Assembly: GCA_035268905.1 (NCBI GenBank)
Contig: DATFJY010000284.1
Coordinates: forward strand, 1,718 to 65,717
Source of the DNA: Desulfotignum sp.
GTDB lineage: Bacteria; Desulfobacterota; Desulfobacteria; Desulfobacterales; Desulfobacteraceae
Direction: 5' to 3'
DNA: 64,000 bases
Part shown: piece by piece, positions 2,356-61,231 of the stretch
How positions within the stretch are numbered: position 1 is the stretch's first letter
Layout of the letters: every line of letters begins with the position of its first letter
Notes under the pieces: model-generated
The model's input: the letters and a program-made list of their open reading frames with translations, nothing else
Database searches by the model: none
Told to the model about the DNA's origin: nothing
Made by a program: the position numbers and the translations under genes

Positions 2356-3615
2356 TCAGGCCTGTTTTTTGGGTTGTTCGTACAAAAGGATGGGGGCCTC
2401 GTTATTCAAAACGACCTCTTCTCCCACAACACATTCTCTGACATCTTCTTTGGATGGAATCTCATACATGATGTCCAGCATGGTTTTTTCCATGATGGCC
2501 CGCAACCCCCGGGCACCTGACTTTCTGGCAACCGCTTCTCTGGCCATGGCTTCAAGTGCCTCATCAGTGAATTGCAAATCCACACCCTCCACTTTGAACA
2601 ATTCCCGGTATTGTTTCACCAGGGCATTTTTGGGTTCTGTGAGGATCTTGACCAGAGAGGGTTCAGTGAGTTCACCAATGGTGGTGATAATGGGCAGCCG
2701 TCCCAGAAATTCCGGAATCAATCCGAACCCGATCAGATCTTCGGGTTTGAGCTGTTCCAGAAGTGTACCGATGTTCTCCTCTTTTTTTTCTGCAATTTTT
2801 GCGCCGAAACCCATTGTTTTCTTGGTTATACGCCGTTCTATAACTTTTTCAAGACCGTTGAAGGTCCCGCCGCAGATAAAAAGAATATTGGAAGTGTCCA
2901 CCTTGACGTAGTCCTGCTGGGGATGCTTTCTCCCACCTTTGGGCGGAATACTGGCAACAGTGCCTTCAATGATCTTCAGCAGGGCCTGCTGGACCCCTTC
3001 TCCGGAAACATCACGGGTTATGGACGGATTGTCACCCCGCTGGGATATTTTATCAATTTCATCAATATAGATAATTCCTTTCTGGGCCCGCTCAATATCA
3101 TAGTCTGCATTCTGAACCAGCGACAATACAATATTTTCCACATCCTCTCCCACATAACCCGCTTCGGTCAGGGCAGTGGCATCGGCAAGGGCAAACGGCA
3201 CATCCAGAAATCTGGCAAGGGTCTGTGCAAGCAGGGTTTTGCCACATCCGGTAGGCCCGATGATCAGAATATTGCTTTTCTGGATCTCCACATCATCGGC
3301 ACCTTTTTCCAGCCGGGCTGTGAGCCGTTTATAATGATTGTACACGGCAACGGAAAGCACTTTTTTTGCTGTATCCTGCTCAATTACATAGGAATCCAGC
3401 TGCTCCTTGATCTGCATGGGCACAAGAAAGTCTTTTGCACCTTCTGATTCAGCTGCTTTTTCTTTTTCTTCATCCTCGATTATCTCACCACAGAGCTTGA
3501 TGCATTCATTGCAAATGTAAACACTGGGGCCTGCAATCAATTTCTGGACCTCTTTTTGATTTTTCCCGCAAAAAGAACAGAAGAACTGATCACTGGTATC
3601 ATCTTTTTTGGCCAT
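2356..3615 (-). CDS. clpX: ATP-dependent Clp protease ATP-binding subunit ClpX
   Basis: Zn-finger CSFCGK...[33 protein letters not shown]. Confidence 0.98.
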
Positions 3616-3641
3616 GTCTTTTGGACTCCTTTGAAACCGGA

Positions 3642-4244
3642 TTAGGTTTCAGCTTCCAATTCACTTCTATCGGCAACCACCCGGTCTACTATGCCATAGG
3701 TTTTTGCCTCATCACCGGACATAAAAAAATCTCTGTCCGTGTCTTTGGCGATTTTGTCTATTTTCTGTCCGGTGTGGGCTGCCATTATTTCGTTCAGGGT
3801 ATCTTTCATTCGTAAAATCTCAGTGGCCTGGATCTTAATATCTGCTGCCTGGCCCTGGGCACCGCCCAAAGGCTGGTGAATCAGAATCCTGCTATTGGGC
3901 AAAGCAAAGCGTTTTTTGTGTGCACCGGCTGCCAGAAGCAGGGCCCCCATACTGGCTGCCTGCCCTATGCAGACGGTTGCCACATCTGGTTTGATATACT
4001 GCATGGTGTCATAAACAGCAAGCCCGGCTGTCACAACCCCTCCCGGAGAATTGATATAAAAACTGATATCTTTCTCAGGATCTTCTGATTCCAGAAACAG
4101 CAGCTGGGCAACAATGAGATTGGCAATTTCACTGTCAATTGCAGAACCCAAAAATACTATCCGGTCTTTTAACAAACGGGAATAGATATCATAGGCACGC
4201 TCTCCTCGGTTGGTCTGTTCAACCACCATTGGAACTAAAGGCAC
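3642..4244 (-). CDS. clpP: Clp protease proteolytic subunit
   Basis: [23 protein letters not shown] (Ser), HQP (His), DRD (Asp). Confidence 0.98.
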
Positions 4245-4320: not shown

Positions 4321-5703
4321 TCACTGATCCAGGTTATTTTCAGATGCCGGTATTTTTTCAGCAGATGCAGCCTCACCTGATCGCTCAGGATCATCATTGT
4401 CATCACTGTCCGGCTCTTTTTCCGTTATGCTGCTATTTTCTATAATAAGATCAACTGCTTTTTTTTCAAGTTGTGAGTGCTTGTAATATTCCATCTGTTT
4501 GGGATCACTCTTGAAAAAATTATTAATGGCCTCCACACTGGCATTCATTCCCCTGGCCATCTCCTCCAGGCTGGCTTCCATCTCCTCATCCGTGAGATCC
4601 AGTTTTTCCTGGGTGATGATCTTATCCAGAATCAAATGCCGCCTTGCCTGTTTTTCCGCCACATCCCGGTACTGGGTAAAAAGCATATCCCGGCTGAGCC
4701 CTTCCTGTTCAAGGCTGGTATTATTGGCTGCATACGACTGTTCCGCCTCACTGACTATGCCGTTGAGCTCTGCTTCTATCATGGCTTCAGGCACTTCAAA
4801 TACATATTTTTCCAGCAGGTGCTGAAATATCTGCTCACTGAGTTCATGTTTTATGCGCTGCCGGTACCCTTTGTCCAGATTGTTCCGGATGGAATCCTTG
4901 ACTTCCTGCAGGGTTTCGAAACTACCGAGGTCTTTAACCAGATCATCATTGATCTCCGGCAGAATTTCCTCCTGGATCTCTTTGAGGGTAACCTTGTACA
5001 AAATAGTTTTTCCCCTGAGATTTTCATCCGGATGGTCTTCCGGATAGCCAACTGCAATTTCCAGATCCTGAACCGGCACACTGCCGATCAATTTCTCGGA
5101 AAATTCTTGGGGCAGTGCATCATGTCCAATACCATACAGATAATTTTCCACCTGAGGGGTATGTTCATATGGTGCATTGTCCAGAAATCCCTGGTAATCG
5201 ATGAGGACAAAATCATCTGCCTTGACAGGCCTGGTTTCCTCCACAGTCTGTTTTTTTGCCATGGTCCGCTGGATCATATGGATCTGCCCGTCAATTTCCG
5301 CATCAGAGACCGCATACCGGTTCTTTTCAAGGGATATACCCTTGAAATCAATCGCTTCCAGTTCAGGCTTCACCTCGACAGTAATATCGAACGTATAGGC
5401 AGCATCCGGATCCAGCTCCGGTGGATCCATCTGGGGGCCGCCCACAATGTTCAGATCATGTTCCTGAATCGCCTCAATAAAAGCATCCTGGATCAGGCGG
5501 GGGGCGACATCGGCATGGACATCTTTGGAAAAACGGTTTTCCAGAACCTTTCTGGGAATTTTGCCTTTCCGAAACCCTTTGATATCAGCCTTTTTTTTCA
5601 GCTCATTGTAGGCCTTGTCGAGTTCTTTTGCAATTTTTTCTCTGGGGATTTCAAAAGAGAGTACTTTTTTTACACTGCTTTTGTCTTGAATTTGTACCTG
5701 CAT
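4321..5703 (-). CDS. tig: Trigger factor
   Basis: GFRKGK ribosome-binding motif, FKBP-like centre, tig-clpP-clpX-lon synteny. Confidence 0.96.
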   Translation of the reverse strand: MQVQIQDKSSVKKVLSFEIPREKIAKELDKAYNELKKKADIKGFRKGKIPRKVLENRFSKDVHADVAPRLIQDAFIEAIQEHDLNIVGGPQMDPPELDPDAAYTFDITVEVKPELEAIDFKGISLEKNRYAVSDAEIDGQIHMIQRTMAKKQTVEETRPVKADDFVLIDYQGFLDNAPYEHTPQVENYLYGIGHDALPQEFSEKLIGSVPVQDLEIAVGYPEDHPDENLRGKTILYKVTLKEIQEEILPEINDDLVKDLGSFETLQEVKDSIRNNLDKGYRQRIKHELSEQIFQHLLEKYVFEVPEAMIEAELNGIVSEAEQSYAANNTSLEQEGLSRDMLFTQYRDVAEKQARRHLILDKIITQEKLDLTDEEMEASLEEMARGMNASVEAINNFFKSDPKQMEYYKHSQLEKKAVDLIIENSSITEKEPDSDDNDDPERSGEAASAEKIPASENNLDQ

Positions 5704-8455: not shown

Positions 8456-10366
8456 ATGGGTAAAATAATCGGAATTGATCTTGGAACAACCAACTCCTGT
8501 GTTGCCGTCATGGAATCTGGAGGAGAAGCAAAAATCATCACCAACGCCGAAGGCGGACGGACTACCCCTTCCATTGTCGCCATCACCGAAGGCGGAGACC
8601 GCATTGTGGGACAGACTGCCAAACGACAGGCCATTACCAATCCGGAAAATACGGTATTCGGTGTCAAAAGGCTCATAGGCAGAAAATTCAAATCAAAGGA
8701 GGTCCAGAGCGACATTCCCAATCTGCCTTATAAAATTGAAGCGGCATCCAATGGTGATACGCGAATCAACCTGCGGGCAAAACAATACAGCCCAGCTGAA
8801 ATATCCTCGTTCATTCTGGCCAACATCAAGAATACCGCTGAAGAATACCTGGGGGAAGAGGTAAAAGAAGCTGTCATTACCGTGCCGGCATATTTTAATG
8901 ACAGCCAGCGCCAGGCCACCAAAGATGCCGGCAAGATCGCCGGACTGGATGTCAAACGGATCATCAACGAACCGACTGCAGCGTCTCTGGCCTACGGACT
9001 GGACAAAAAAGGCGAAGAAAAAATTGCGGTATTTGACCTGGGCGGCGGCACCTTTGATGTGTCCATTCTTGAAATTGGAGACGGGGTGTTTGAAGTAAAA
9101 TCCACCTCAGGGGATACCCACCTGGGTGGTGAAGATTTTGATCTGCGTGTCATTGATTATATCGCCAATGAATTCAAAAAAGACCAGGGAATTGATGTCC
9201 GTTCCGACAAAATGGCGCTGCAGCGTCTCAAAGAGGCGGCGGAAAAAGCAAAAATGGAATTGTCCAGTGCAACGGAAACCAATATCAACCTGCCCTTTAT
9301 CACTGCGGATGCCTCCGGTCCCAAGCACCTGGATGTCAAACTGACCCGGGCGAAACTGGAATCTCTGGTGGCAGATCTTTTGGACAATCTGGAAGGCCCT
9401 TGCAAGGTGGCATTGAAAGAAGCAGGTGTAGGCTCCGGCACTGTGGATGAAGTTGTCCTGGTGGGCGGCATGACCCGCATGCCGGCTGTCCAGCAGCGGG
9501 TGGAAAAGATATTCGGCAAAAAACCCCACAAGGGGGTGAACCCGGATGAAGTGGTTGCCATGGGTGCTGCTGTCCAGGCCGGTGTACTGCAGGGGGATGT
9601 CAACGATGTCCTGCTGCTGGATGTGACCCCGCTTTCCCTGGGTATTGAAACCCTGGGCGGTGTGATGACCAAACTCATAGAAAAAAACACCACCATCCCC
9701 ACCAAAAAGAGCCAGGTGTTCTCCACTGCTGCGGACAACCAGCCCGCGGTTTCCATCCACGTGCTCCAGGGAGAACGGGAGATGGCAGCTGACAACAAGA
9801 CCCTGGGCCAGTTTGAACTCGCGGATATCCCGCCGGCACCCCGGGGGGTTCCCCAGATAGAGGTATCCTTTGATATTGATGCCAACGGCATTGTTCAGGT
9901 GTATGCCAAAGACAAGGCAACCGGCAAGGAACAGTCCATCCGCATCACCGCAGCTTCCGGTCTTTCAGACGATGAAATTGAAAAAATGGTCAAAGATGCG
10001 GAAATGCATGCAGAAGATGACAAAAAGCGGCGGGAACTTGTGGATACCAAAAACCAGGCGGAAGCATTGGTGGACCAGACGGAAAAGACCCTGAAAGAAC
10101 ATGGTGACAAAGTGGATGCAGAATCCAAAAAGGGCATTGAATCCGCTGTAGAGGCCTTGAAGCAGGCCAAGGAATCCAGTGATGTGGATGACATAAAACA
10201 GAAAATCGAGGCCCTTTCCCAGGCCTCCCACAAGCTGGCTGAGGTCATGTACCAGCAGGCATCTTCCTCACAGGAAGGCGGCCAGGGAGACACCGGTGAT
10301 GCCGGGGCCCAGGCAGATGATGACGTGGTGGATGCCGACTTTGAAGAGGTCAACAAAGACAAGTAA
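8456..10366 (+). CDS. dnaK: Chaperone DnaK
   Basis: GGAGG RBS then [15 protein letters not shown]; DLGGGTFD; C-terminal DADFEEV. Confidence 0.99.
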
Positions 10367-16575: not shown

Positions 16576-16685
16576 CTGGATATTTGCCGCAAGCATACCA
16601 GAATTTCAGTCTTTCTGAGCAGCACCCCATCTCAGGATACCACCAGGGGCTTCATAGTGTGCACGCTCCTGTAACAAATATGCAG
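16576..16685. mobile_element. MITE, short form (copy A)
   Basis: TIRs CTGGATATTTG / CAAATATGCAG; 8-bp direct repeat CTGATGTT at 16568-16575 and 16686-16693; colinear with both ends of the 26575-26836 copy. Confidence 0.8.
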
Positions 16686-22000: not shown

Positions 22001-22086
22001 CTGGATATTTGCCATAGCAGCATACCCGCTATGGGGAGTCCCTGGTGGTGTCCTGTGAACGGACCGTCAGATTCGGAGGGGGCCGG
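22001..22086 (+). mobile_element. Truncated MITE (copy C): one TIR plus one arm of the hairpin module
   Basis: CTGGATATTTGCCATAGCAGC...CCCTGGTGGTGTCCTGTGAACGGACCGTCAGA...GGAGGGGGCC aligns with the reverse complement of 26755-26836. Confidence 0.8.
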
Positions 22087-23906: not shown

Positions 23907-25754
23907 TTATTTTTTATCCTTCTTTTTGCGTTTTCCGGCTATGAGATGGCGTTTCTGGGCCTGTAAAACAGTTTTGCGCAACCGTATGGAAACCGGGGTG
24001 ACCTCCACCATCTCATCATCCGCAATAAAATGGATGGCCTTTTCCAGTGTCATCTCCCGGACAGGGGTGCACACCACATTTTCATCCTTGCCCGAGGCCC
24101 GCATATTGGTAAGCTTTTTTTCCTTGCAGGGATTCACATCGATGTCTGTGGCCCGGTTATGCTCGCCGATGATCATGCCTTCATACACCGGCGTGCCCGG
24201 GGCAATGAACAGCTGGCCCCGGGGTTCGAGGTTGAACAGGGCATAGGGCACGGCACTGCCCTGCCGGTCCGAGACCAGGGAACCGTTGAACCGCACCGGA
24301 ATTTTTCCCCGGAATGGCTCGTAACCGGCCAGATAGGAATTCATGATCCCGGTGCCCCTTGTATCGGTGAGAAACTCATCCCGGTATCCGATCAAAGATC
24401 TTGAAGGGATGGAAAACTCGATACGGACTCTTCCCTTGCCGTTGTTGACCAGGTTGGTCATCTTGCCTTTTCTGATGGAGAGCTTTTCTGTTACCACGCC
24501 CATGAAATCCTCTTCACAATCCACGAAAAGGTGCTCGACAGGTTCCAGTTTCTCCTTGTTTTCCATCTTGTAGATCACCCGGGGGCGGCTCACACAGAGT
24601 TCAAACCCTTCCCGCCGCATGGTTTCAATGAGAATAGCCAGCTGGAGTTCGCCTCTGCCCTTGACCACAAAACTTTCATCCGTGGTGCTTTCTTCCACGG
24701 CAATGGCCACGTTCATCAAGATTTCCTTGAACAGCCGCTCCCGAATTTTCCGGGACTGCACATATTTGCCTTCACGTCCGGCAAACGGAGAATTGGAAAT
24801 GGCAAACTGCATGAACACGGTTGGTTCGTCCACGGTTATCCTGGTCAGGGCACACGGTGCCTGGCGGGTACAGATGGTATCTCCGATTTTGACATCATCG
24901 ATGCCGGACAGCACCACGATGTCTCCGGGATCAGCCCGGTCCACCGGATCCAGAACCATACCTTTGTAGGATTGGAGCTTGCTCACTTTGAGCGGTAACT
25001 GGCGGTTGTTTTCTCCCAGACAGACCAGAGATTCATTGGATGCGGCAGATCCGTTGAACACCTTGCCGATGGCAAGACGTCCCAGATAATCGGAATACCC
25101 CAGGTCAGACACCAGCATCTGGAAGGGGGCATTTGGGTCATAGGACGGTGGGGGCATCTCTTCTATGATGGTATCAAACAGCACATGCAGATGTGCCACA
25201 TCCGCATCCAGCTCCTTTTTGACAATACCATCACGGCCGATGGCATAAAAATAGGTAAAATCCAGCTGCTCTTCTGTGGCCTCCAGGTCTATGAACAGAT
25301 CATACACCATGTCCAGCACTGCATCCGGCCGGGCATCTTTGCGGTCGATCTTGTTGATGATCACCATGACCGGCAGGTTGGCTTCAAAGGTTTTTTTGAG
25401 CACAAACCGGGTCTGGGGCAGGGGGCCTTCAGAGGCATCCACCAGAAGAATGGCGCTGTCCGCCATGGACAAAGCCCGTTCCACCTCCCCGCCGAAATCC
25501 GCATGGCCCGGCGTGTCAATGATATTGATCTTCACGTTCTGCCACACCACGGAACAGTTTTTGGCAGCAATGGTAATACCCCGCTCTCTTTCCAGGTCCA
25601 TGCTGTCCATGAGGCGCTCATCCACCTGCTGCCCTTCCCTGAAAATCCCGCTCTGGCGGAACATGGCATCCACCAGGGTGGTTTTGCCATGGTCTACATG
25701 GGCTATTATGGCAATATTCCGTAAGCGCGCGTTGGTCACTTTCTGTTTTTTCAT
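23907..25754 (-). CDS. typA: Translational GTPase TypA/BipA
   Basis: AHVDHGKTTL, ERERGITI, DTPGHADFGGEVER, GRGELQL. Confidence 0.97.
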   Translation of the reverse strand: MKKQKVTNARLRNIAIIAHVDHGKTTLVDAMFRQSGIFREGQQVDERLMDSMDLERERGITIAAKNCSVVWQNVKINIIDTPGHADFGGEVERALSMADSAILLVDASEGPLPQTRFVLKKTFEANLPVMVIINKIDRKDARPDAVLDMVYDLFIDLEATEEQLDFTYFYAIGRDGIVKKELDADVAHLHVLFDTIIEEMPPPSYDPNAPFQMLVSDLGYSDYLGRLAIGKVFNGSAASNESLVCLGENNRQLPLKVSKLQSYKGMVLDPVDRADPGDIVVLSGIDDVKIGDTICTRQAPCALTRITVDEPTVFMQFAISNSPFAGREGKYVQSRKIRERLFKEILMNVAIAVEESTTDESFVVKGRGELQLAILIETMRREGFELCVSRPRVIYKMENKEKLEPVEHLFVDCEEDFMGVVTEKLSIRKGKMTNLVNNGKGRVRIEFSIPSRSLIGYRDEFLTDTRGTGIMNSYLAGYEPFRGKIPVRFNGSLVSDRQGSAVPYALFNLEPRGQLFIAPGTPVYEGMIIGEHNRATDIDVNPCKEKKLTNMRASGKDENVVCTPVREMTLEKAIHFIADDEMVEVTPVSIRLRKTVLQAQKRHLIAGKRKKKDKK

Positions 25755-26574: not shown

Positions 26575-26836
26575 CTGGATATTTGCTATAAGCAACCCGG
26601 GTTTTTGACCTTTTGCTGCAGCACTCTGTCGCCGGTCCCGCCCCTGGTGATATCCTGTGCCCGGCCCGAGACCCTTCGGGGGCCCGGTTCCATGTGAATA
26701 ATGAAATACAGCGATCCAATCTCTGACTTCAAAGCATCCCGGCATATTTTACCAGGCCCCCTCCGGCTCTGATGGTCCGTTCACAGGACACCACCAGGGG
26801 CTCCTTAGCGTGTACGCTGCTATCGCAAATATGCAG
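26575..26836. mobile_element. MITE, long form (copy B, 262 bp) carrying the palindromic hairpin module
   Basis: TIRs CTGGATATTTG (26575) / CAAATATGCAG (to 26836); imperfect flanking repeat CTTTGGT/CTCTGGT; internal inverted arms 26641-26659 and 26782-26800. Confidence 0.8.
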
Positions 26837-49252: not shown

Positions 49253-49273
49253 GGCCTTTTCCCTCCAATTTAT

Positions 49274-49415
49274 ATGAAAGCTGTTAGCTGTTAGCCCTTA
49301 GCGATTAGCTATTAGTAGTACGCAATCATTCGCTTCCAGTAAACAAAATTTCCTTGCTGTTATCACCGGCTAACGCTTTCATACTTTGTTTTGCCCGCCA
49401 GGGCATGGGTGTTAT
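49274..49415 (+). repeat. Heptamer-rich element (copy H3)
   Basis: 49317-49409 matches 47381-47474 at about 90% (hand count). Confidence 0.85.
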
Positions 49416-49483
49416 TGATTCCAGACATCTTGCGGTACTGTAGAATAAAACCGGCCAAGTTTCAACCCAACTACCAAATAGTT

Positions 49484-49598
49484 CTGAATGTTTGCCATAA
49501 GCGTACCATATTTTAATTCGTTCCATAGGGTGTCCTTGTCCCAAGCCTACCCCTGTCAAGGTTCTTGTGATACACAATCCATTATAGCGAATATCCAG
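49484..49598. mobile_element. Diverged short MITE (copy G)
   Basis: Ends CTGAATGTTTGCCATAAGCGTACC / GCGAATATCCAG; left end 19/24 identical to copy A; similar length; no target duplication visible. Confidence 0.6.
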
Positions 49599-49651
49599 TA
49601 TTCGGTGTCAAGATAATCGTATGTAGATGCAGCGTCACATATATTGAAAAG

Positions 49652-49723
49652 CCCCCTGAGGGTGCCGTGTGACAGGACCGTCAGATGCCAATCTCGGGCC
49701 GGTCACACGGCACCCTCAGGGGG
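49652..49723 (+). repeat. Stand-alone hairpin module (copy E)
   Basis: Perfect 22-bp arms around AGGACCGTCAGATGCCAATCTCGGGCCG. Confidence 0.85.
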
Positions 49724-49732
49724 GGGCAGCAA

Positions 49733-51949
49733 TCAATCAGACAGGATCGGGGCACTTGCGCTGACCGTGCGGCACCACTGCTGGTACTGGTGCATGCTGG
49801 ACAACGCTTTGACCGCGCGTTCCGGTGAGGGAAAAAAGACCCCTTTATATTCCAGATCTTCATACCGGTACAGGGTCTGGCTGCGGGCATCGGTGAGCAG
49901 GCTGACCCCCAGGACGGGTTTGCTGTATTTTTGTGTCATCTCCACCACATACCGTGTATAGGCTTCTTCAAATTCCAGTATTATCTGTTTGAAGCCTGCC
50001 ACCTGTTCTTTGGAAATCGACGGGTCAGTTTCGGCAATGGATTTGGCCATGTTATCAACCAGGACCCGTTTGCCATGGATCCCCAGGTGAATGACCGCAT
50101 CACACCCGTCCCATTTGAGCAGTGCCTCCAGGCATGTTTTGGGGACTTCCGGATCGCCCTCCCCCACCAGGTCCACAGGATTCCCATGGCTCCAGAAGTC
50201 CGGAAGAACAGCATTCAGGCGTTCTATGATATCTTCTGACAGCGGCGGCACCACCAGCCCGTATTCCGCGCACAGATCCGTGGCGATCACCCCCCAGCCG
50301 CCCCCTAAGGTCATGATAGCCACCCGGTTGCCCCGGGGCAGCGGCAGGGAAGAAAACACCGCAGACAGGTCCAGCAGTTCCATGGGCTGGTTCACCTGGA
50401 TGATGCCGGCCTGGCGGCAGGCAGCATCAAACACCCGGGCATTGGATGCCATGGCACCGGTATGGCTGGCCGCAGCCTGCTCCCCTCTTGCGGTGCGGCC
50501 GCCCTTGAGCACCACCACCGGTTTTTTTGTGGATACCCGCCTGGCACTGTTGAAAAACCGCCGGCCGTCCTTGACGCTTTCAATATACAGGACCACGGTA
50601 CGGGTAAGGGCATCTATTTCAAAGGCCTCCATATAGTCTTCAATGGTGACCATGGCCTCATTCCCGGATCCGGAAAAGGCCCGGATGCCGATTCCCTGCT
50701 GCTCGGCAAAAGCCAGAAGCTGGGTGCCCATGTTACCGGACTGGCTCACCAGGGCGGTGGACCCGGGAATGGGATAGGCATGGGCAGCACTGCAGTAAAT
50801 ATCTGCATGGGGATTGCACATGCCCATGGTGTTGGGTCCCAGAATCAGGATACCGGCTTTTCGTGCCGCTTCCACCAGTGCTTCTTCCAGTGCTGCACCC
50901 TGGTCTCCCACCTCCCGGAATCCGGAAGTGATGAGCAGCATCCCTTTTACCTTTTTGGCCCCCAGTTCCGGGATCAGGTCCATGACATGCCGGGCCGGTA
51001 CCGTGACCACAGCCAGATCCACATCTGCGGGGATGTCGGAGACCGACCGGTACACCTGCCTGTCCATGATGGTCCCGCCTCTGGGATTCACCAGATACAC
51101 CTTTCCCTTGTAATCCCGGGACAACGTATTGGCAGGCAGCATGTGCCCCCATTTTCCCGGTGTCGCAGATGCCCCCACAAAGGCAATGGATTCCGGATAG
51201 AAACACGCCCCCAGTGTTTTCAGATCAATGCGGGGAGACAACCCGTTTTGCCTGGCAGGGGGACCGGTGATGATAAGCCCGTCCACTGCCACCGGGGCGC
51301 CGTCAGGCTGGATAATCAGGGGGTTGATATCAATTTCTCTGATCTGAGGCCAGGTGACTGCCAGATCGGAAAGCCCTTTTAAAACAGCCTTTATTGCCTG
51401 TATATCACAGCCAGCTTCCCCTCTGAAGGCCCGGAGTATTCCGCTACCGGCAAAGGATCTCAGCATATCATCCATGTCCGCCTCATTCAAAGGCGCAATT
51501 TTAAAGACAATATCTGCCAGCACCTCGGTGAATATTCCCCCCAAACCGAACATGATTACCGGCCCGAACTGGGGATCCCTGAACATCCCGGCAACCAGTT
51601 CGCGTTTTCCCTGCACCATGGGCTGCACCAGAAATCCTTCCACCGCATTGCCTTCACTGGCCGTCATTTTTCGGGCTGCAGCCATGACCTGTTCTTTTGT
51701 AAAAAGTCCCAGGTGCACCAGGTCTGCTTCTGTTTTATGCAACACCGCTGCCCCCATACCCTTGAGCACCACGGGAAACCCTGATGCCGCCGCTGCCCGG
51801 GCCGCATCTTCCGGAGTTTTTGCGTCATACTCTTTGACTACCGGCATGCCCATGGCCTTGAAAATCTCTTTGGCATCAGCTTCTGTTATGTATTTTTGGT
51901 TTTCCTGTGCAGCCCTATCCAGGACCGCTGCAATATCAATGGCTTCCAT
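49733..51949 (-). CDS. ADP-forming acyl-CoA synthetase, ATP-grasp (beta) domain first
   Basis: N-terminal VVLK...HKTE..LV ATP-grasp, EIDINPL; then CoA-binding domain, GPNTMG, SQSGN, phospho-His ASHTGA, NPVD. Confidence 0.9.
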   Translation of the reverse strand: MEAIDIAAVLDRAAQENQKYITEADAKEIFKAMGMPVVKEYDAKTPEDAARAAAASGFPVVLKGMGAAVLHKTEADLVHLGLFTKEQVMAAARKMTASEGNAVEGFLVQPMVQGKRELVAGMFRDPQFGPVIMFGLGGIFTEVLADIVFKIAPLNEADMDDMLRSFAGSGILRAFRGEAGCDIQAIKAVLKGLSDLAVTWPQIREIDINPLIIQPDGAPVAVDGLIITGPPARQNGLSPRIDLKTLGACFYPESIAFVGASATPGKWGHMLPANTLSRDYKGKVYLVNPRGGTIMDRQVYRSVSDIPADVDLAVVTVPARHVMDLIPELGAKKVKGMLLITSGFREVGDQGAALEEALVEAARKAGILILGPNTMGMCNPHADIYCSAAHAYPIPGSTALVSQSGNMGTQLLAFAEQQGIGIRAFSGSGNEAMVTIEDYMEAFEIDALTRTVVLYIESVKDGRRFFNSARRVSTKKPVVVLKGGRTARGEQAAASHTGAMASNARVFDAACRQAGIIQVNQPMELLDLSAVFSSLPLPRGNRVAIMTLGGGWGVIATDLCAEYGLVVPPLSEDIIERLNAVLPDFWSHGNPVDLVGEGDPEVPKTCLEALLKWDGCDAVIHLGIHGKRVLVDNMAKSIAETDPSISKEQVAGFKQIILEFEEAYTRYVVEMTQKYSKPVLGVSLLTDARSQTLYRYEDLEYKGVFFPSPERAVKALSSMHQYQQWCRTVSASAPILSD

Positions 51950-52599: not shown

Positions 52600-52738
52600 A
52601 AAACACCAATCTGTCAAGAACAAATGCTCACCCCCCAACGTGGAAAACCCGCAACCCAATTGACCCGCCTCATTCTCTCTTTTTTTGACAGGAACGGAAG
52701 CGTCAGAGAACAGTATTTGGTAATGCTGGACAAACCAG

Positions 52739-52894
52739 CCCCTGGTGGTGCCCTGTGAACGGACCGTCAGAGCCGGAGGGGCAACCCGAACAAGCCAGGA
52801 TCTAAAGTACTATCCGGCTGCCCGGTTTATATCTGAAATTATCATCGTAACCGCCCCGCAGGATCTCGGACCGGGCACAGGGCACCACCAGGGG
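52739..52894 (+). repeat. Hairpin module, long form (copy D)
   Basis: Perfect 19-bp arms CCCCTGGTGGTGCCCTGTG/CACAGGGCACCACCAGGGG, conserved core, 70-nt inner segment. Confidence 0.85.
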
Positions 52895-53095
52895 CGGCAT
52901 CCTTGCCAATATCCTGACAAAACCGAACGAAATACCCATTGTCAAATAAAAATCCCTGCAAACCGGCCTTTGTGCCTGCAGATACCATGTAATCTTTAAA
53001 TAACAGGAAGCTAGTGAAAATCCCACACAGGTATGATAAGGTGCGCTCCCATGAAATGCCCGGCCAATATATCATCGCCAATAAGGACGGTTCCC

Positions 53096-61023: not shown

Positions 61024-61087
61024 AAACTTGAATTACCCGGGGCAATCGCATGTAACAGATCTACATCCTGCCTTCCAGGAATCCCCT

Positions 61088-61159
61088 CCCCTGTAGGCAA
61101 CCTGAACACGGCCCGAGATTGCATAATCTGACGGTCCGTGTTCAGGTTGCCAACAGGGG
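61088..61159 (-). repeat. Stand-alone hairpin module (copy F)
   Basis: 24-bp arms (1 mismatch); reverse complement core CGGACCGTCAGATTATGCAATCTCGGGCCG. Confidence 0.85.
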
Positions 61160-61231
61160 GGCACACTGCAGACCGATTTTTGGAGCCTCCGGCGGTAGTT
61201 TGCAGCCCAGCCGACTGTCAGTGCCCGCAGA

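Follow-up and report, generated by a model that had tools for sequence, protein, structure and literature searches.

The hairpin at 49652–49723 is probably the palindromic core of a non-autonomous DDE transposon, belonging to miniature elements (MITEs) that have multiplied in Desulfotignum and in which the core would serve as a portable folded module; for the long form of the hairpin, the MITE identity is well supported. The preliminary description of the window (the whole stretch of 64,000 nt analysed here) had held that the hairpin is not the arm of a MITE. This does not stand, because most hairpins have terminal inverted repeats (TIRs), target duplications are present and there is a cognate insertion sequence (IS) with a DDE transposase. 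The accompanying proposal of a structure-recognised ssDNA or RNA element survives in part: it is supported by the covariation of the stem, by a one-strand bias towards G.T pairs and by the pairing of the conserved boxes, but the hairpin is not independent of the MITE.

Hairpins in the window and the elements that carry them

The window comes from a draft genome of 3.69 Mb in 379 contigs, with 52 % G+C. The five copies previously located in it were all found, with the boxes GGACC(G/A)TCAGA (5′ box) and TCTCGG(G/A)CC (3′ box) where they had been placed. The 5′ box occurs five times in the window, each with zero mismatches, and the 3′ box occurs at the four complete copies and once more as a chance match inside an open reading frame (ORF) at 24266. 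The coordinates originally given are correct for the hairpin cores, but they cover the cores only, each of which (E, B, D and F) lies inside a larger element. The hairpins and these elements, of the L-type or the S-type, are as follows:

16576–16685, minus strand: hairpin-less L-type copy, between CTGATGTT direct repeats
22001–22086, plus strand: L-type fragment reduced to the left TIR, left arm and 5′ hairpin half
26575–26836, minus strand: complete 262-bp L-type MITE around hairpin B, TIRs CTGGATATTTGCTATA / CGCAAATATGCAG
26641–26800, minus strand: hairpin B, long form
49484–49598, minus strand: L-type (subfamily 2) MITE that has lost the hairpin by deletion and keeps only the CAGGGG of the stem; abuts the S-type element of E
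ca. 49609–49768, plus strand: S-type MITE-like element around hairpin E; its left end, CAAGATAATCGTATGTA, is a degenerate CAGGG..ATCGCATGTA repeat
49652–49723, plus strand: hairpin E, short form, with a 23-bp stem GGGTGCCGTGTGACA, the invariant tip and a 6-nt loop, TGCCAA; 100.6 bits with covariance model R1
ca. 52711–52916, plus strand: short-armed L-type variant around hairpin D, with diverged ends CAGTATTTGGTAA / TTGCCAATATCCTG, read by eye
52739–52894, plus strand: hairpin D, long form, with ca. 92 nt between boxes
ca. 61036–61217, minus strand: insertion carrying hairpin F, with one recognisable S-type end, CCCGGGGCAATCGCATGTA
61088–61159, minus strand: hairpin F, short form; its stem, GGCAACCTGAACAC, is highly divergent and its loop is TTATGCAA

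The tip of E folds as had been proposed, with GG/CC, an A.G mismatch, CCG/CGG, a TC bulge and AGA/TCT; the complete order is the 23-bp stem, an A.G mismatch, GG/CC, a second A.G mismatch, CCG/CGG, the TC bulge and AGA/TCT. Its folding energy is −62.7 kcal/mol (z = −8.1 versus shuffles). The two G.T wobbles reported for B on the GGACC-first strand are present in the sequence, and the compensatory difference between B and D is confirmed as a T-A/C-G pair. We also agree that the hairpin is not an ordinary terminator, since it has no T tract; the stems are followed by CGGGGCC, and no terminator-like site was found at B or E.

The bounds of the element around E are based on the ends of the S-type family, on its complete copies of 163–164 bp and on related strains that skip 49469–49769. 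The right arm of this element (49733–49768) supplies the last ca. 12 codons and the stop codon of a minus-strand ORF, 49733–51949, and related strains that do not have this stretch must therefore end their version of the protein differently. The MITE of B is flanked by CTTTGGT and CTCTGGT, a 7-bp duplication with six of seven positions identical. The copy at 16576–16685 retains 17 nt of one stem arm (CAGGATACCACCAGGGG), which indicates a deletion derivative and not an empty backbone. Close to E, at 49260–49412, the window contains a different repeat, rich in GTTAGCT-like heptamers, which is also skipped in related strains, where 8–9 other letters lie between 49260 and 49412; its very high summed depth in metagenomes points to a second abundant and polymorphic repeat family.

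Anatomy of the elements

In the long form, a hairpin of ca. 160 nt is the core of a MITE of ca. 262 bp with 17-bp perfect inverted repeats (CTGGATATTTGCCATAG / CTATGGCAAATATCCAG), and the unit consists of 5′ CTGGATATTTGCCATAGCAGCGTACCCGCTATGGGGAG, the hairpin and CGGGGCCCGGGAAAGCGTGCTGCATAGAACAATCAAAAACCTGGCATGCCTATGGCAAATATCCAG 3′. There are 69 complete L-type copies of 250–290 bp and 365 TIR matches genome-wide, and target duplications of 7–8 bp were found at many copies (TGGACAT, AAATGGT, ACCACCCT, AAAAACAT). The whole L-type unit folds end to end, with −145 kcal/mol (z = −9.1). Several subfamilies can be told apart by their left arm and their interior of ca. 70 nt, and the polarity of the hairpin with respect to the arms is constant in all complete copies but one (C370:545-809). 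In that copy the hairpin is flipped relative to the arms, an outcome that recombination of one stem arm with the other would produce, and chimeras between subfamilies also exist, for instance C14:27499-27746. The interiors of the long forms (26685–26754 and 52783–52852 among them) are nearly unrelated sequences of constant length, closed by a second conserved helix, GGGG(G)CC / GG(C)CCCC, with a distance between boxes of 92–97 nt in the different subfamilies. The right end of L-type elements, CCTGGCATGC(C/T)TATGGCAAATATCCAG (26575–26600, minus strand, in the MITE of B), is sigma-54-like in its spacing and, as a promoter, would fire outward.

The short forms, such as E and F, are carried by a second element of 163–164 bp with ends CAGGGYMATCGCATGTA / TACATGCGATKRCCCTG, of the CAGGG...ATCGCATGTA type. 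The CAGGGYMATCGCATGTA repeat is present at both ends, and 10-bp flanking repeats were seen at two of ca. six S-type copies, with none visible at the others; TGACA/TGTCA recurs beside several S-type ends. A third group, the T-type, has no recognisable arms, and its tip, GGACTGTCAGA...TCTCAGGCC, with GGACTG, corresponds to a compensated C-G to T-A change within the otherwise invariant tip. One and the same hairpin tip is thus common to elements with unrelated ends (CTGGATATTTGCC, CAGGG..ATCGCATGTA and the T-type). At the foot, the hairpins read (A/G)AG|CCCC...GGGG|CGG. At least one recognisable TIR lies within 190 nt of 101 of the 113 long forms and 18 of the 29 short forms in this genome.

Hairpins have been lost repeatedly through deletion at short direct repeats. 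We considered that the hairpin might be an insertion into an empty MITE backbone and rejected this possibility, because the hairpin-less backbones retain pieces of the stem, indicating deletions and not empty targets of an insertion of the hairpin alone. There are also hairpin-less S-type copies, with the same junction and diverged sequence, and the S-type backbone may move without the hairpin.

Abundance and distribution

The 5′ box occurs 140 times in the genome and the 3′ box 144 times, compared with a handful expected by chance, and 142 sites have both boxes and a paired stem (113 long forms and 29 short forms). Many contigs of the draft genome end inside the repeat. When a single genome of each species was scanned with the exact pattern, the long form turned up in more than 10 Desulfotignum metagenome-assembled genomes (MAGs); the number of remaining exact-pattern matches is about that estimated by chance for this pattern in 596 billion bases. 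The covariance model of the short form has matches in all 22 genomes of the genus; outside the genus, it detects only weak, divergent copies, with tip GGACCGTYGRAA, in two further genera of the family. In agreement with the view that the repeat belongs to no named family, it has no Rfam match at gathering or at permissive thresholds: the window yielded only tRNA and SRP RNA at the gathering score, and, under permissive settings, E produced generic hairpin (miRNA precursor) matches far below threshold and B none. A literature search likewise found no paper linking Desulfotignum with such a repeat.

Presence and absence at orthologous sites

A comparison of orthologous loci for empty sites, advised in the preliminary description, showed that strains and species differ in which copies they have. 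At the E site, metagenome contigs from related strains join 49468/9 to 49768/70 with 9–15 other letters between, which indicates that these strains contain neither the adjacent L-type remnant nor E. For F, the orthologous position was read out in ten genomes of the genus, and further states were taken from match coordinates. The site is empty, with 37–41 nt between the flanks, in four genomes and, with 47 nt, in a fifth; match coordinates place ca. seven more in the empty state, so that the F insertion is absent from ca. 12 genomes of the genus. F itself was found only in this genome and in G011.

In three other genomes, the F site contains a T-type element of ca. 140 nt, in the opposite orientation and at the same position, GAATTG^TCAG, and match coordinates suggest the same for three further genomes. 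The F-type and T-type elements share this position between convergent genes (61036/61217 in the window and the orthologous loci L123, L125, L127 and L128), apparently with a TG/TA dinucleotide on both sides of each. The presence of two different hairpin elements at one site suggests a preferred target. In three genomes, both the stem and the tip of the old T-type copy at this site have degenerated, showing that the fold is not maintained at every locus.

A parent insertion sequence

A unit of 2520 bp in a Desulfotignum MAG (L042, 1877–4397) is bounded by the same TIRs as the L-type MITEs, and it contains a hairpin (1945–2100) and an ORF of 562 aa (2428–4116) whose product matches the Pfam domain DDE_Tnp_1 at 5e-16. 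This transposase scores below all NCBIfam cut-offs for IS families, the best being IS4 with 32.9 bits against a cut-off of 115. The hairpin lies ca. 70 bp inside the left end and ends ca. 330 nt upstream of the transposase start, without overlap; read on its GGACC-first strand, it is antisense to the transposase gene and directed at the outer end of the IS. A MITE on contig C300 of this genome (ca. 8465–8756) aligns to L042 positions 4400–4340 and then 2148–1915, which identifies it as an internal-deletion derivative (1877–2148 plus 4340–4397) lacking the central 2.2 kb. In three genomes, similarity to the L042 IS ends exactly at the right-hand TIR, beyond which each genome has a different flanking sequence; no matching TSD was found in the flanks of L042. 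The shared ends and the C300 derivative make the L-type MITE a derivative of this IS group, and we infer that the transposase of the group mobilises it through its ends.

The L042-type transposase has more than 800 close homologues in metagenomes, mostly on contigs of 2–3 kb. Three relatives with transposases 69–81 % identical define ISs of 2243, 2492 and 2761 bp that carry CTGGATATT(T/C)G... at both ends, with boundaries confirmed by copies in different flanks, and one related IS is flanked by a 7-bp duplication, ATATTTT. The group as a whole (L042, L145–L150) consists of ISs of 2.2–2.8 kb with TIR CTGGATATT.., a 7-bp TSD and a DDE_Tnp_1 transposase of 550–570 aa, and it may constitute an unclassified IS4-related group. 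None of these three relatives contains a comparable hairpin. We therefore discarded the idea that the hairpin is a conserved part of the IS family; it was added in the Desulfotignum lineage, and the transposase family does not require it. Beside one IS copy, in a Desulfobacteraceae MAG, there is a gene of 326 aa (L149:2864-3844) with Y1_Tnp and a weak Bac_DnaA_C match, RAYT-like in size, and genomes of the genus also hold Y1_Tnp genes of 220–340 aa with weaker scores.

By tblastn, this draft genome contains no homologue of the transposase, and only four of the 22 genomes of the genus have one; as multi-copy ISs are often lost from binned assemblies, the missing transposase says little. We looked for an autonomous element in this genome and found that every TIR leads into MITE arms. 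One pair of TIRs 2.3 kb apart proved to be a chance match enclosing genes that, from their translations, we take to be hflK/hflC-like.

Covariation and strand bias of the stem

The long stems had been described as different sequences that are each nearly self-complementary, and covariation among copies bears this out. In an alignment of 28 short-form copies, 24 of the 31 pairs were changed on both sides (111 cells), and 95.8 % of the cells were paired, versus 80.9 % in shuffles (0 of 500 reached the observed value) and 32–47 % when the partner was slid. Stems as unlike as those of F, C176 (GGTAACCCATGCCC) and E close the same tip, in which the only change within the short-form set is a compensated C-G to U-A pair. 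Two species have orthologous copies of F, between which two pairs have changed in a compensated manner (A-U to U-A and A-U to G-C); the G011 version of F has a stem that resembles the common L-type stem. The boxes are conserved whether they are 6 or ca. 95 nt apart, which makes sense only if they act paired.

The types of imperfect pairs were counted at stem positions 4–22 of 141 copies from this genome, oriented by the tip and anchored on the boxes. Read on the GGACC-first strand, these contained 2533 Watson-Crick, 68 G.T, 18 A.C and 60 other pairs, the counts treating copies as units although copies are not independent. G.T exceeded A.C at 17 of 17 non-tied stem positions, and 96 copies from other genomes gave a ratio of 45:12. 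Rare mismatch classes in this genome were balanced (20:18). Among the classes reaching at least three copies, the difference was marked (10 of 22 for G.T versus 0 of 13 for A.C; Fisher p = 0.005), as would be expected if copies with G.T still multiply or recur and those with A.C do not; this contrast was not significant in the smaller sample from other genomes. Unpaired control regions showed a weaker bias in the same direction (81:45; stems versus control, Fisher p = 0.02), so part of the wobble excess could be mutational. A recount based on nhmmer, in which the bias seemed to vanish (54:42), is invalid because the palindrome matches both strands and reversed hits turn G.T into A.C; the multi-genome model alignment A2, in which both strands are mixed, was also left out of the pair counts.

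Neither replication nor neighbouring genes explain the wobble bias, because the orientation of the copies is balanced with respect to both. By GC skew, the top strand was on the G-rich or the C-rich strand in a ratio of 54:62, and the orientation relative to neighbouring genes was 61:55 overall and 13:14 and 8:12 in co-directional contexts.

Comparison with known systems

Bacterial MITEs with a structured core include bcr1 of the Bacillus cereus group, Correia/NEMIS of Neisseria and ERIC (PMC3184786). MITEs are defined by TIRs around a core, TSDs, the lack of a transposase gene, a size below ca. 400 bp, many copies and a cognate autonomous IS (PMC3184786); in our case we found TIRs, TSDs of the L-type, sizes of 250–290 bp, a cognate IS in the genus and polymorphism for presence and absence. 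Like bcr1, Correia and ERIC, the elements are small and gene-less, with TIRs, TSDs, many dispersed intergenic copies and a long stable stem-loop. In bcr1, the long stable stem-loop shows compensatory base-pair changes (PMC3184786), and hairpin MITEs with such changes are thus already known. Unlike these, the present elements are a new sequence family in a new host genus, their asymmetric tip is common to unrelated ends, the stems are free to vary and the tip is invariant, and there is a reproducible one-strand bias of G.T over A.C. What is new is therefore the repeat family, its parent IS group, the asymmetric tip common to elements with different ends and the reproducible strand bias.

The parent IS resembles the IS4/IS10/IS50 group in its DDE_Tnp_1 domain, in TIRs beginning with CTG and in its 7-bp TSD, and it differs in its size of 2.2–2.8 kb, in a transposase below the NCBIfam cut-offs and in that distant family members do not have the hairpin. 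RNA-OUT of IS10, a member of the IS4 family, has its own promoter and overlaps the 5′ end of the transposase mRNA. The hairpin studied here is likewise subterminal and antisense to the transposase gene, with the better-pairing strand pointing outward; unlike RNA-OUT, it does not overlap the start of the ORF and has no predicted promoter.

In integrons, attC sites form arrays of cassettes beside an integrase, and their conserved boxes are at the hairpin base. The hairpin described here shares with attC the folding of one strand, extrahelical bases, and a structure that is conserved although the stem sequence varies; here, in contrast, conservation is in the tip, and each copy stands alone within a transposon, scattered over the genome. 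HUH elements of the IS200/IS605 type have no TIR and no TSD and show an orientation bias relative to replication, whereas TIRs and TSDs are present here and there is no bias in replication strand. The elements also recall REP and REPIN sequences, which are abundant intergenic palindromes with long hairpins and conserved unpaired features and are mobilised by RAYT (PMC3116915, PMC3333891, PMC3733652). The foot of REP palindromes bears a conserved tag, GTAG or CGTC (PMC3733652); our hairpins have no such foot tag, the only CGTC lying in the tip box, and they do have TIRs and TSDs. A RAYT partner was not found in the genome, whose two PF01797 genes (on C14 and C209) are IS200-like, of ca. 150 aa, with unrelated flanking hairpins.

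Alternative explanations

The one-strand wobble bias, reproduced in other genomes, would also result if the GGACC-first strand were transcribed and the hairpin worked as RNA, either as an outward stable antisense or regulatory RNA like RNA-OUT or as a stabiliser of mRNA ends. We regard this as possible, if rather doubtful. The favoured strand of the L042 IS is indeed antisense to the transposase gene and points outward, and the unpaired regions also have more C>T and A>G on the GGACC-first strand, as would be expected of a non-template strand. For bcr1 repeats, both transcription and compensatory changes at the RNA level have been reported (PMC3184786). Nevertheless, the hairpin ends well short of the transposase start, no sigma-70-type promoter was predicted in the elements (scans at B and E), orientation with respect to neighbouring genes is unbiased, and a search for RNA sequencing runs covering the locus or the MITE found none. 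Somewhat less probable still, in our opinion, is a functionless inherited palindrome, in which pairing would come from the youth of the copies and from conversion between arms or paralogues, and the shared tip from descent and the formation of chimeras. Such a palindrome would account for the chimeric and flipped copies, for the recurrent hairpin deletions at microhomologies, typical of unstable palindromes, for the decayed T-type copy at the F site and for the L-type-like stem of F in G011, which is what paralogue conversion would give. Conversion, however, predicts equal numbers of G.T and A.C, contrary to the 68:18 and 45:12 observed; besides, the boxes of the tip are invariant while the interior of ca. 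70 nt and the stems diverge almost completely between subfamilies, and the conserved mismatch and bulge have not been repaired to a perfect palindrome.

The likeness to attC sites and to substrates of HUH enzymes (IS200/IS605 or RAYT), put forward initially, does not hold in the features compared. It is extremely unlikely that the hairpin is the substrate of a single-strand-specific enzyme, be it an HUH Y1 or RAYT transposase of the kind that acts on REP/REPIN or a tyrosine recombinase of the kind that acts on attC, and moves independently of the MITE ends: TIRs and TSDs flank most copies, the GC-skew orientation is unbiased, conservation is in the tip and not in the foot, and the hairpin-less backbones, keeping pieces of the stem, are deletions. 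The search for copies beside Y1 transposases led to the same result, as the module is not near either of the two IS200-like Y1_Tnp genes, whose hairpins are unrelated. What such an enzyme would explain are the ca. 22 hairpins, including the GGACTG T-type, that have no recognisable TIR, the two different hairpin elements found at one site in opposite orientation in different lineages, and the strand-specific fold. It is also very unlikely that the element is a portable promoter, with the boxes of the long form as the upstream activator site for a sigma-54-like −24/−12 motif at the right end. This motif, TGGCATGC(C/T)TATGGCA, has the GG-N10-GC spacing of sigma-54 promoters in 34 of ca. 70 right ends and is preceded by an IHF-like AATCAAAAACCTG, and 53 of 72 right ends face a co-oriented gene (53:19). 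The motif-less left end, though, faces genes just as often (32:14), and since both MITE ends face co-oriented gene starts ca. 70 % of the time, the sigma-54-like motif is not specifically supported; moreover, the short forms do not have it, and the boxes are 6 or ca. 95 bp apart in different forms.

A proposed folded module in DDE miniature transposons

In the preferred reading of the hairpin as the core of DDE MITEs, the transposase would act in trans on the terminal repeats and the hairpin would be a portable cis-acting module, working folded on the GGACC-first strand. The two conserved boxes would act only when paired, as the A.G mismatch and the TC bulge. That the boxes are kept at either spacing, that mismatch and bulge are never repaired and that wobbles are biased together suggest that they act as one imperfect helix on one strand, and the one-strand fold seems to matter, as RNA or as ssDNA. 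The folded strand could be a transcript, or ssDNA exposed during transposition or replication, and the lineages keeping the fold would be those that multiply or persist.

The presence of the module in elements with unrelated ends and diverged interiors, with a conserved tip, argues for a benefit independent of one transposase. A bolder proposal, which we consider improbable, is that a factor of the host or the element reads the module in a strand-specific manner through the A.G mismatch and the TC bulge, and that the module has been exchanged between unrelated DDE backbones because it raises their multiplication or survival. If this were true, the hairpin would be a cis enhancer read by its structure, within elements whose movement otherwise depends on double-stranded ends.

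The MITE family accounts for an abundant and previously undescribed repeat that breaks Desulfotignum assemblies, and its parent can now be named as a widespread IS of the Desulfobacterales, with more than 800 homologues, that falls below every curated IS-family threshold. Should the strand-specific fold not be confirmed, the element would be one more hairpin MITE. To our knowledge, only HUH elements and integron cassettes have so far been associated with spread that depends on a folded single strand; a confirmed strand-specific fold would provide, in Desulfotignum, a tractable DDE miniature transposon with the same dependence.
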